Shown in pieces: positions 26,000-58,473 of a stretch of DNA of 64,000 nt. The notes under the pieces are model-generated. The model had not been told where the DNA came from. It was given only the letters and a program-made list of their open reading frames with translations, and searched no databases. Numbering within the stretch: position 1 is the stretch's first letter; the number at the start of each line of letters is the position of its first letter. The position numbers and the translations under genes are program-made. The stretch lies in NCBI RefSeq assembly GCF_003334785.1, contig NZ_QOWV01000008.1; one strand, given 5' to 3'. The stretch is from Escherichia coli. Its GTDB lineage: Bacteria; Pseudomonadota; Gammaproteobacteria; Enterobacterales; Enterobacteriaceae.

Positions 26000-27403
26000 G
26001 TGTCACTTTCGCTTTGGCAGCAGTGTCTTGCCCGATTGCAGGATGAGTTACCAGCCACAGAATTCAGTATGTGGATACGCCCATTGCAGGCGGAACTGAG
26101 CGATAACACGCTGGCCCTGTACGCGCCAAACCGTTTTGTCCTCGATTGGGTACGGGACAAGTACCTTAATAATATCAATGGACTGCTAACCAGTTTCTGC
26201 GGAGCGGATGCCCCACAGCTGCGTTTTGAAGTCGGCACCAAACCGGTGACGCAAACGCCACAAGCGGCAGTGACGAGCAACGTCGCGGCCCCTGCACAGG
26301 TGGCGCAAACGCAGCCGCAACGTGCTGCGCCTTCTACGCGCTCAGGTTGGGATAACGTCCCGGCCCCGGCAGAACCGACCTATCGTTCTAACGTAAACGT
26401 CAAACACACGTTTGATAACTTCGTTGAAGGTAAATCTAACCAACTGGCGCGCGCGGCGGCTCGCCAGGTGGCGGATAACCCTGGCGGTGCCTATAACCCG
26501 TTGTTCCTTTATGGCGGCACGGGTCTGGGTAAAACTCACCTGCTGCATGCGGTGGGTAACGGCATTATGGCGCGCAAGCCGAATGCCAAAGTGGTTTATA
26601 TGCACTCCGAGCGCTTTGTTCAGGACATGGTTAAAGCCCTGCAAAACAACGCGATCGAAGAGTTTAAACGCTACTACCGTTCCGTAGATGCACTGCTGAT
26701 CGACGATATTCAGTTTTTTGCTAATAAAGAACGATCTCAGGAAGAGTTTTTCCACACCTTCAACGCCCTGCTGGAAGGTAATCAACAGATCATTCTCACC
26801 TCGGATCGCTATCCGAAAGAGATCAACGGCGTTGAGGATCGTTTGAAATCCCGCTTCGGTTGGGGACTGACTGTGGCGATCGAACCGCCAGAGCTGGAAA
26901 CCCGTGTGGCGATCCTGATGAAAAAGGCCGACGAAAACGACATTCGTTTGCCGGGCGAAGTGGCGTTCTTTATCGCCAAGCGTCTACGATCTAACGTACG
27001 TGAGCTGGAAGGGGCGCTGAACCGCGTCATTGCCAATGCCAACTTTACCGGACGGGCGATCACCATCGACTTCGTGCGTGAGGCGCTGCGCGACTTGCTG
27101 GCATTGCAGGAAAAACTGGTCACCATCGACAATATTCAGAAGACGGTGGCGGAGTACTACAAGATCAAAGTCGCGGATCTCCTTTCCAAGCGTCGATCCC
27201 GCTCGGTGGCGCGTCCGCGCCAGATGGCGATGGCGCTGGCGAAAGAGCTGACTAACCACAGTCTGCCGGAGATTGGCGATGCGTTTGGTGGCCGTGACCA
27301 CACGACGGTGCTTCATGCCTGCCGTAAGATCGAGCAGTTGCGTGAAGAGAGCCACGATATCAAAGAAGATTTTTCAAATTTAATCAGAACATTGTCATCG
27401 TAA
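26000..27403 (+). CDS. dnaA: Chromosomal replication initiator DnaA
   Basis: 467 aa from GTG start ([14 protein letters not shown]); AAA+ Walker [10 protein letters not shown]. Confidence 0.98.
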
Positions 27404-32045: not shown

Positions 32046-32144
32046 GCCTGATGCGCTACGCTTATCAGGCCTACGAAAATCTTGCAATGTATTGAATTTT
32101 CATGATTTTGTAGGCCGGATAAGGCGTTCACGCCGCATCCGGCA
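32046..32144. repeat. BIME: two REP elements in inverted orientation
   Basis: gcctgatgcgctacgcttatcaggcctac and gtaggccggataaggcgttcacgccgcatccggca. Confidence 0.7.
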
Positions 32145-42203: not shown

Positions 42204-42305
42204 TACATCGTAGCCGATGAGGACGCGCCTGATGGGTGTTCTGGCTACCTGACCTGTCCATTGTGGAAGGTCTTACATTCTCGCTGATTTCAGGAGCTAT
42301 TGATT

Positions 42306-42719
42306 ATGCGTAACTTTGATTTATCCCCGCTTTACCGTTCTGCTATTGGATTTGACCGTTTGTTTAACCACTTAGAAAACAACCAGAGCCAGAGTAATGG
42401 CGGCTACCCTCCGTATAACGTTGAACTGGTAGACGAAAACCATTACCGCATTGCTATCGCTGTGGCTGGTTTTGCTGAGAGCGAACTGGAAATTACCGCC
42501 CAGGATAATCTGCTGGTGGTGAAAGGTGCTCACGCCGACGAACAAAAAGAGCGCACCTATCTGTACCAGGGCATCGCTGAACGCAACTTTGAACGCAAAT
42601 TCCAGTTAGCTGAGAACATTCATGTTCGTGGTGCTAACCTGGTAAATGGTTTGCTGTATATCGATCTCGAACGCGTGATTCCGGAAGCGAAAAAACCGCG
42701 CCGTATCGAAATCAACTAA
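42306..42719 (+). CDS. ibpA: Small heat shock protein IbpA
   Basis: 137 aa from [17 protein letters not shown]. Confidence 0.97.
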
Positions 42720-55647: not shown

Positions 55648-55822
55648 TATCACGGATGCTTTTATAAAAATAATTAGAATAAGTCACTACGCATTCCCAT
55701 AAATGCGGGAGAGGAATCTATCACATTGATGAATGTTAGCCAGATATACGCCAGGAATGGGGAATTGTTTAGCGGCAGAATATGTAAACAAAAGCGGCAA
55801 TAAATGTTGCCGGGAGAGATGG

Positions 55823-55857
55823 TAGGGCGGATAAGATGCGTCAGCATCGCATCCGAC
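55823..55857. repeat. REP-like palindromic element
   Basis: gcggataagatgcgtcagcatcgcatccgac. Confidence 0.5.
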
Positions 55858-55870
55858 ACCAACCCGCACG

Positions 55871-55904
55871 CTAAATATAAAAGGGGAGCGGTTTCCCGCT
55901 CCCC
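55871..55904 (-). terminator. Intrinsic terminator downstream of tisB
   Basis: ggggagcg/cgctcccc hairpin with U-run on minus strand. Confidence 0.65.
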
Positions 55905-55926
55905 TTTGGTGCGACTTGAATCTGAA

Positions 55927-56016
55927 TTACTTCAGGTATTTCAGAACAGCATCAAGCAGTTGCAGTGCTGCAACAATGAGTTTGAGGATAAGAATGGCGA
56001 TATCCACCAGGTTCAT
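55927..56016 (-). CDS. tisB: Type I toxin TisB (29 aa)
   Basis: Reverse complement translates exactly MNLVDIAILILKLIVAALQLLDAVLKYLK*. Confidence 0.92.
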   Translation of the reverse strand: MNLVDIAILILKLIVAALQLLDAVLKYLK

Positions 56017-56250
56017 ACGCGTCTCCTGTGGTTCAGGAGCACTGCCAGCTGACGTACCTTTCCGCTGCCTGTTGCCAGCTGTTGTGCACGCGGTATCTCA
56101 AGGAGAAACGTTGTGCTTGTTGACATAACACAGTGTGCTCACGCGGGGTTAAGGCGCTGACGGCACCACCCGTTTCAGCCAGGACTTAGTGCGCCGGGTA
56201 ACGATGCGGCCCCCGCATAACACATTGCGTACAGTGATATTATAGAAGTT

Positions 56251-56270
56251 TACTGTATAAATAAACAGTA
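56251..56270. promoter_or_regulatory. LexA box (SOS operator) for tisAB / istR-2
   Basis: TACTGTATAAATAAACAGTA, CTGT-N8-ACAG. Confidence 0.8.
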
Positions 56271-56376
56271 ATATTTGGACAAAACGCAAACTGTGATCGA
56301 TACTCAACTATGCACTAAATACGTCAAAATTCGTGCCGAAATTGCGCGTTCTGCGCGGAACACGTATACTTTCAGT

Positions 56377-56451
56377 GTTGACATAATACAGTGTGCTTTG
56401 CGGTTACCAGCCGCAGGCGACTGACGAAACCTCGCTCCGGCGGGGTTTTTT
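56377..56451 (+). ncRNA. istR: IstR-1 antitoxin sRNA, about 75 nt (IstR-2 would start further upstream)
   Basis: -10 tatact at 56365-56370; 21-nt match to the tisAB leader; terminator hairpin plus T6 at 56426-56451. Confidence 0.6.
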
Positions 56452-56580
56452 GTTATCTGCAATTCAGTACAAAACGTGATCAACCCCTCAATTTTCCCTT
56501 GCTGAAAAATTTTCCATTGTCTCCCCTGTAAAGCTGTGCTTGTATAAATATTGTTAAACACAAAACCAACAAGGTCCCCA

Positions 56581-56679
56581 ATGACTACTTCCATGCTCAA
56601 CGCAAAACTACTACCAACTGCGCCATCCGCCGCAGTGGTCGTCGTGCGTGTGGTGGTGGTCGTCGGCAATGCGCCGTAG
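56581..56679 (+). CDS. ivbL: ilvB operon leader peptide IvbL (32 aa)
   Basis: MTTSMLNAKLLPTAPSAAVVVVRVVVVVGNAP*; Val/Leu-rich. Confidence 0.9.
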   Translation: MTTSMLNAKLLPTAPSAAVVVVRVVVVVGNAP

Positions 56680-56706
56680 GGACTGGAACAACACACGATT
56701 CCAAAA

Positions 56707-56736
56707 CCCCGCCGGCGCAAACCGGGCGGGGTTTTT
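56707..56736 (+). terminator. ilvB attenuator terminator
   Basis: ccccgccggcgcaaaccgggcgggg hairpin followed by ttttt. Confidence 0.8.
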
Positions 56737-56784
56737 CGTTTAAGCATCTCCCGGAAAGTCGGCCCAGAAGAAAAGGACTGGAGC

Positions 56785-58473
56785 ATGGCAAGTTCGGGCA
56801 CAACATCGACGCGTAAGCGCTTTACCGGCGCAGAATTTATCGTTCATTTCCTGGAACAGCAGGGCATTAAGATTGTGACAGGCATTCCGGGCGGTTCTAT
56901 CCTGCCTGTTTACGATGCCTTAAGCCAAAGCACGCAAATCCGCCATATTCTGGCCCGTCATGAACAGGGCGCGGGCTTTATCGCTCAGGGAATGGCGCGC
57001 ACCGACGGTAAACCGGCGGTCTGTATGGCCTGTAGCGGACCGGGTGCGACTAACCTGGTGACCGCCATTGCCGATGCGCGGCTGGACTCCATCCCGCTGA
57101 TTTGCATCACTGGTCAGGTTCCCGCCTCGATGATCGGCACCGACGCCTTCCAGGAAGTGGACACCTACGGCATCTCTATCCCCATCACCAAACACAACTA
57201 TCTGGTCAGACATATCGAAGAACTCCCGCAGGTCATGAGCGATGCCTTCCGCATTGCGCAATCAGGCCGCCCAGGCCCGGTGTGGATAGACATTCCTAAG
57301 GATGTGCAAACGGCAGTTTTTGAGATTGAAACACAGCCCGCTATGGCAGAAAAAGCCGCCGCCCCCGCCTTTAGCGAAGAAAGCATTCGTGACGCAGCGG
57401 CGATGATTAACGCTGCCAAACGCCCGGTGCTTTATCTGGGCGGCGGTGTGATCAATGCGCCCGCACGGGTGCGTGAACTGGCGGAGAAAGCGCAACTGCC
57501 TACCACCATGACTTTAATGGCGCTGGGCATGTTGCCAAAAGCGCATCCGTTGTCGCTGGGTATGCTGGGGATGCACGGCGTGCGCAGCACCAACTATATT
57601 TTGCAGGAGGCGGATTTGTTGATAGTGCTCGGTGCGCGTTTTGATGACCGGGCGATTGGCAAAACCGAGCAGTTCTGTCCGAATGCCAAAATCATTCATG
57701 TCGATATCGACCGTGCAGAGCTGGGTAAAATCAAGCAGCCGCACGTGGCGATTCAGGCGGATGTTGATGACGTGCTGGCGCAGTTGATCCCGCTGGTGGA
57801 AGCGCAACCGCGTGCAGAGTGGCACCAGTTGGTAGCGGATTTGCAGCGTGAGTTTCCGTGTCCAATCCCGAAAGCGTGCGATCCGTTAAGCCATTACGGC
57901 CTGATCAACGCCGTTGCCGCCTGTGTCGATGACAATGCAATTATCACCACCGACGTTGGTCAGCATCAGATGTGGACCGCGCAAGCTTATCCGCTCAATC
58001 GCCCACGCCAGTGGCTGACCTCCGGTGGGCTGGGCACGATGGGTTTTGGCCTGCCTGCGGCGATTGGCGCTGCGCTGGCGAACCCGGATCGCAAAGTGTT
58101 GTGTTTCTCCGGCGACGGCAGCCTGATGATGAATATTCAGGAGATGGCGACCGCCAGTGAAAATCAGCTGGATGTCAAAATCATTCTGATGAACAACGAA
58201 GCGCTGGGGCTGGTGCATCAGCAACAGAGTCTGTTCTACGAGCAAGGCGTTTTTGCCGCCACCTATCCGGGCAAAATCAACTTTATGCAGATTGCCGCCG
58301 GATTCGGCCTCGAAACCTGTGATTTGAATAACGAAGCCGATCCGCAGGCTTCATTGCAGGAAATCATCAATCGCCCTGGCCCGGCGCTGATCCATGTGCG
58401 CATTGATGCCGAAGAAAAAGTTTACCCGATGGTGCCGCCAGGTGCGGCGAATACTGAAATGGTGGGGGAATAA
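56785..58473 (+). CDS. ilvB: Acetolactate synthase I large subunit IlvB
   Basis: 562-aa ORF, ThDP enzyme. Confidence 0.98.
   Translation: MASSGTTSTRKRFTGAEFIVHFLEQQGIKIVTGIPGGSILPVYDALSQSTQIRHILARHEQGAGFIAQGMARTDGKPAVCMACSGPGATNLVTAIADARLDSIPLICITGQVPASMIGTDAFQEVDTYGISIPITKHNYLVRHIEELPQVMSDAFRIAQSGRPGPVWIDIPKDVQTAVFEIETQPAMAEKAAAPAFSEESIRDAAAMINAAKRPVLYLGGGVINAPARVRELAEKAQLPTTMTLMALGMLPKAHPLSLGMLGMHGVRSTNYILQEADLLIVLGARFDDRAIGKTEQFCPNAKIIHVDIDRAELGKIKQPHVAIQADVDDVLAQLIPLVEAQPRAEWHQLVADLQREFPCPIPKACDPLSHYGLINAVAACVDDNAIITTDVGQHQMWTAQAYPLNRPRQWLTSGGLGTMGFGLPAAIGAALANPDRKVLCFSGDGSLMMNIQEMATASENQLDVKIILMNNEALGLVHQQQSLFYEQGVFAATYPGKINFMQIAAGFGLETCDLNNEADPQASLQEIINRPGPALIHVRIDAEEKVYPMVPPGAANTEMVGE

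Follow-up and report, generated by a model that had tools for sequence, protein, structure and literature searches.

What is encoded in the stretch between emrD and ivbL, where a very short reading frame on the minus strand faces a small RNA unit on the plus strand and the two share a repeated sequence: a relative of a known toxin-antitoxin system, or a known system itself? The initial annotation of the window (the whole stretch of 64,000 nucleotides analysed here) had interpreted the region as a tisB/IstR-1 type I toxin-antitoxin pair. This interpretation is supported because sequence identity to the K-12 locus, protein and RNA family models (TisB in NCBIfam, istR in Rfam) and published experiments on the same locus all agree with it. 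The locus is tisB/istR-1 itself in its K-12 form, not a relative of it. No observation of substance speaks against this, and we put the probability that it is the well-studied toxin-antitoxin locus of E. coli K-12, to which the published mechanism can be applied, at about 97%. As a toxin-antitoxin locus it is already known, and there is nothing new in it.

The alignment of window positions 55800–56800 with the MG1655 genome revealed 1000 identical bases out of 1001, and the tisB/istR-1 span is identical throughout. The sole difference (T at 56747, C in MG1655) falls outside this span; it is located downstream of ivbL, between the ivbL terminator hairpin and the start of ilvB. The Megablast search with the same segment against complete E. 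coli genomes returned a match in 5425 of 5426. In the matching stretch, the RefSeq annotation of NC_000913.3 lists tisB, IstR-1 (73 nt) and IstR-2 (140 nt), whose positions were converted by subtracting the K-12 coordinate from 3909569, and the gene order, emrD-tisB-istR-ivbL-ilvB, is that of K-12, with emrD/ysdE and ivbL/ilvB as the RefSeq flanks. Compared with tisB/istR-1 of MG1655 (b4618/b4616), the locus thus has the same flanks (emrD, ysdE, ivbL, ilvB) and shares the LexA box, the promoters, the pairing region and the terminators, with no difference within the locus. The features are collected in Table 1. Those named in the initial annotation are present, while IstR-2, tisA, the tisAB terminator, the standby mechanism and the processing of the leader (+1, +42 and +106 forms) had been omitted from it.

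Table 1. Features of the tisB/istR-1 locus in window coordinates
Feature	Position	Strand	Description and source
tisAB intrinsic terminator	55880–55907	-	12-pair perfect hairpin, then T-rich tail
tisB CDS	55927–56016	-	29-aa membrane toxin MNLVDIAILILKLIVAALQLLDAVLKYLK; ORF list, RefSeq annotation
tisA ORF	56013–56126	-	37 aa; ORF list
tisB Shine-Dalgarno	56022–56027	-	AGGAGA; sequence
IstR-1 target / ribosome standby region in tisAB leader	56119–56139	-	mRNA +94 to +114, counted from a putative start at 56232
5' part of active +42 mRNA	56145–56191	-	includes 5' structure element needed for standby; alignment, PMC6690012
tisAB -10	56244 down to 56239	-	TATAAT; sequence, hexamer named in PMC11264685
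LexA box	56251–56270	.	TACTGTATAAATAAACAGTA; flanked by the divergent promoters; 7 bp upstream of the minus-strand TATAAT
IstR-2 promoter	56276–56304	+	-35 TGGACA, 17-nt spacer, -10 GATACT; consensus scan, hexamers named in PMC11264685
IstR-2	56312–56451	+	140 nt, SOS-induced longer form, includes all of IstR-1; RefSeq annotation mapped
IstR-1 promoter	56342–56370	+	-35 TTGCGC (56342–47), 17-nt spacer, -10 TATACT (56365–70)
IstR-1 antitoxin RNA	56377–56451	+	5' tail 56377–56397, internal hairpin, terminator hairpin 56426–56449 with T6

The minus-strand frame, which had been read as encoding exactly a 29-aa TisB, is annotated as tisB in RefSeq, and its product was identified by two equivalog models, each matched over 29 of 29 positions (NCBIfam NF011340: 69.6 bits, cut-off 53; TIGR04459: 59.9 bits, cut-off 38). 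The protein has Asn at position 2 and thereby belongs to a minority variant typical of K-12 strains, and the ribosome binding site AGGAGA is 100% conserved within E. coli (PMC11264685). From the promoter spacing, the published RNA length of 359 nt (PMC2577331) and the position of the +106 end we infer a tisAB transcription start near 56232; a 359-nt RNA initiated there would end at about 55874, just past the terminator. With this start, the published +42 end corresponds to 56191, the +106 end to 56127, and the tisA AUG is found at +107. This AUG (56124–56126, minus strand) falls within the IstR-1 target and is replaced by ACG in 10 of the 15 aligned loci from other species, including every locus with G at position 7 of the repeat; the tisA ORF is therefore not conserved across genera, which fits the report that there is no experimental evidence for tisA translation (PMC11264685).

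The LexA box is the only match in the 64 kb to TACTG(TA)5CAGTA at up to 3 mismatches, and such matches occurred in none of 100 shuffled sequences. It had been described as a consensus box, which holds for its presence (it is unique in the window) but not to the letter, as it departs from the idealised palindrome at two positions, both in the central spacer. A CTGT-N8-ACAG box is found at the same position in 14 of the 15 loci from other species, Lelliottia having CTGG in the first half-site.

On the plus strand, the Rfam istR model (RF01400) matches positions 56322–56451 over its full length (model positions 1–130) with 150.1 bits (gathering score 45) and an E-value of 1.5e-32. The match to IstR-1 proposed from the letters is thus borne out by Rfam as well as by RefSeq. 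The architecture proposed with it is present in the sequence: the TATACT hexamer precedes the transcribed unit, and a 10-pair terminator hairpin is completed by six T (56446–51). As to the limits of the 75-nt unit delineated earlier, the 3' end agrees with RefSeq, but the 5' end does not, since the RefSeq feature (56379–56451, 73 nt) starts two bases further in. The length of 75 nt was reportedly given by Vogel et al. in 2004. A 5' end at 56377 also fits the 21 nt of complementarity stated in a review (PMC4147584). The hexamers of the IstR-1 promoter are 99.8–100% conserved (PMC11264685) and are kept also across genera, according to the alignment of the loci from other species. In the predicted fold of IstR-1 (-32.5 kcal/mol) the first 12 nt are unpaired and are followed by two hairpins.

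The 5' tail of IstR-1, GTTGACATAATACAGTGTGCT, has one other near-copy in the 64 kb, in the tisAB leader at 56119–56139, with one mismatch, and the repeat search extends the pair to 22 nt (56118–56139 and 56376–56397, 258-nt spacing). Hence the 21-nt direct repeat reported initially survives re-inspection with a difference of one base, and the further claim, that the two divergent transcripts are complementary there despite not overlapping, is confirmed as well. Because the transcripts are divergent and the DNA repeat is direct, the RNAs are complementary, with 20 Watson-Crick pairs and one U:G wobble. The first 25 nt of IstR-1 are predicted to pair with the leader at -38.8 kcal/mol, compared with -24.6 kcal/mol for the strongest alternative among the non-self sites of the 64 kb. 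This 25-nt tail was used in place of the full RNA, as the duplex fold of all 75 nt with the entire mRNA produced a long interaction that was uninformative (-78 versus a shuffle mean of -53). The published end of the RNase III product, +106, lies inside the IstR-1 duplex.

Conservation of the pairing was analysed in other species, represented by one genome each, with a search pattern that comprised only the two IstR hairpins and left the pairing region out. The pattern returned 120 stretches; roughly 100 of them, from G+C-rich genomes (actinomycetes, alphaproteobacteria and haloarchaea), matched by chance and were eliminated by a filter that demanded a GTTGAC[AG]TAA tail immediately upstream. 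Fifteen loci, from Citrobacter, Enterobacter, Kosakonia, Phytobacter, Pluralibacter, Siccibacter, Superficieibacter and Lelliottia, were examined, and 14 were scorable. The upstream sequence of the locus from Siccibacter colletis (L019) was too short for scoring. All 14 scorable loci repeat the 21-nt tail 236–253 nt upstream, the two copies differing at no more than 2 positions, and a TisB-like ORF was found in most loci from other genera. Across the scorable loci 97.6% of the cells are paired in the duplex, a count biased towards pairing by the choice of the leader copy as the best match to the IstR tail. Repeat positions 7 and 12 exhibit compensatory switches between A-U and G-C on both sides, wobbles occur at positions 1, 11 and 20 (U:G at the latter two), and true mismatches are few, with an A:C mismatch at position 5 in some genera. 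The compensatory changes represent few independent events, because the sequences are related. The covariation across genera may accordingly be regarded as supporting evidence for the pairing and not as proof of it; the decisive evidence is experimental and has been published.

Could the repeat nevertheless be accidental, or a duplication that matters at the level of DNA, for instance a duplicated site for a protein, with no role in RNA-RNA pairing? The copies do form a direct repeat in the DNA, their core, ACACAGTGTG, is nearly palindromic, as is typical of protein operators, and a third partial copy is present at 56216–56227. An accident is excluded by the shuffling experiment, in which two matches to the 21-nt repeat occurred in 0 of 100 shuffles. 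Both copies are located within transcribed regions, on opposite strands, and the changes between genera are compensatory or G:U wobbles, which argues against a purely DNA-level role, as do the published cleavage of the duplex by RNase III and the inhibition of 30S and S1 binding by IstR-1 (PMC6690012, PMC4147584). An explanation without RNA pairing has in fact already been refuted, as added IstR-1 blocks both 30S/S1 binding and in vitro translation of the +42 tisB mRNA (PMC6690012), and we give it practically no chance.

Pairing of the two RNAs being the preferred reading, it may still be asked which RNA acts on the leader. The longer, SOS-induced IstR-2 contains the whole of IstR-1, the 21-nt region included, and its promoter, which was recovered by the consensus scan, adjoins the LexA box; it could therefore be suspected of being the functional antitoxin in place of IstR-1. 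In the predicted fold of IstR-2, however, the 21-nt region is not entirely free: its leading 5 nt, GTTGA, pair with the 5' extension specific to this RNA. The 5' part found in IstR-2 but not in IstR-1 shows little conservation between genera. IstR-2 synthesis is confined to the SOS response, and tisB is not repressed by it (PMC11264685). The case for IstR-2 is thus only very slightly better than that for a repeat with no RNA role, and IstR-1, pairing through its 5' tail, remains the antitoxin in our reading.

For E. coli it has been described that LexA represses tisAB and that IstR-1, which is transcribed constitutively in the opposite direction without overlap, is complementary over 21 nt to the tisB 5' UTR (PMC4147584, PMC6690012, PMC5668327). 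The SOS induction of tisAB, the constitutive expression of IstR-1, the cleavage at +106 and the toxicity of TisB are established for the K-12 locus (PMC4147584, PMC6690012, PMC2577331, PMC5668327, PMC8309996). Given the exact match of sequence, the same mechanism almost certainly applies here. As the literature describes it, LexA at 56251–56270 would repress the leftward tisAB promoter until DNA damage leads to the 359-nt tisAB mRNA, whose primary (+1) form would be untranslatable, with the tisB ribosome binding site folded away; loss of the first 41 nt would yield the active +42 mRNA, which would expose a single-stranded standby site, some 100 nt ahead of the tisB start, where 30S subunits would load through the ribosomal protein S1. 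IstR-1, expressed constitutively from the rightward TATACT promoter, would pair by its 5' 21 nt with the standby site, so that ribosome loading would be blocked and the duplex cut by RNase III, leaving the inert +106 mRNA. Should tisAB mRNA exceed IstR-1, TisB would depolarise the inner membrane and promote persister formation. Pairing of IstR-1 across the standby site and the RNase III cleavage to the inert +106 mRNA are documented (PMC6690012, PMC4147584, PMC8309996), as are membrane depolarisation and persister promotion by TisB (PMC8309996), and the combination of a sequestered ribosome binding site with a distant single-stranded 30S loading site covered by the antisense RNA was demonstrated experimentally (PMC6690012). 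In our predicted folds of the +1, +42 and +106 forms the SD/AUG region is mostly paired (mean P(unpaired) about 0.29), and the mean P(unpaired) of the target rises from 0.39 in +1 to 0.48 in +42. These partition-function folds recover the published standby-site opening only weakly and were therefore not counted in support of the mechanism.

Across the eight other genera, conservation does not peak in the tisB coding sequence: positions 56145–56186 form the most conserved block of the locus and surpass the tisB codons. This block corresponds to +47 to +88 of the mRNA and overlaps the 5' structure element which the +42 mRNA requires for standby (PMC6690012). Two further peculiarities of the leader were noted. 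At the beginning of the primary transcript (56216–56227, +6 to +17 of the mRNA) there is the partial third copy, CATAACACATTG, which is 11/12 identical to the core of the target and is kept only in close Citrobacter relatives. Just downstream of the IstR-1 target in the mRNA, the leader contains about 33 extra nt (~56085–56117), which are present in E. coli and Citrobacter sp. Awk 4 and absent from the other 14 aligned enterobacterial loci, and which are flanked by GTTGTGC direct repeats (56084–90 and 56110–16). Perhaps the third copy could provide IstR-1 with another contact or act as a decoy in the +1 mRNA, or the insertion of ~33 nt could alter the standby geometry in a lineage-specific manner? 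Either role would be quite improbable, if a little less far-fetched than the two alternatives weighed above.

Among other type I systems, dinQ/agrB of E. coli likewise combines a small, LexA-repressed membrane toxin with a divergent, non-overlapping, constitutive antisense RNA, and its primary mRNA is also inactive until 5' processing (at +44 in dinQ versus +42 in tisB); the difference is that AgrB induces a refolding which hides the Shine-Dalgarno sequence, instead of competing with ribosome loading (PMC5668327). The zorO/orzO and shoB/ohsC pairs resemble tisB/istR-1 in the divergent genes, the long 5' UTR and the pairing of the antitoxin far upstream of the toxin ribosome binding site; zorO regulation involves RNase III, and the existence of a standby-like region has been proposed (PMC4147584, PMC6690012). 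Their toxins, however, belong to families other than TisB, and in the papers cited here LexA control is named for tisB, dinQ and symE, but not for zorO/orzO or shoB/ohsC (PMC4147584). The hok/sok pair is also of type I, with a toxin mRNA that is kept inactive by its fold until processing activates it, and with an antisense duplex cleaved by RNase III. It differs in that Sok pairs at the upstream mok leader frame and blocks the translation of mok, to which the translation of hok is coupled (PMC4147584), whereas the tisB and istR-1 genes diverge without overlapping, and IstR-1 targets the standby site.

Several other elements were observed in the window. Between emrD and the tisB terminator there are the RefSeq-annotated gene for the 24-aa small protein YsdE (ysdE, 55729–55803, plus strand) and a REP element (55826–55858), a REP being mentioned also in PMC2577331; a weak naRNA4 match on the REP element was rejected, as it scored below the Rfam gathering score, and so were the STnc310 and P6 matches on the terminator hairpin just downstream of ivbL. 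Farther away, Rfam matches above the gathering score were obtained for AsdA, the antisense RNA of the dnaA mRNA (26510–26590, minus strand), the ES036 sRNA (32067–32109, minus strand) and the ROSE_2 thermoregulator (42240–42312, plus strand).

The intact tisB/istR-1 locus points to a K-12-like E. coli chromosome as the origin of the window. The value of the result is that of a correct annotation only, and no new biological question is opened by it; a trans-encoded type I toxin-antitoxin pair could be recognised from the raw sequence. The pair so recognised, tisB/istR-1, is a model system both for SOS-induced persister formation and for the control of ribosome standby by an antisense RNA.
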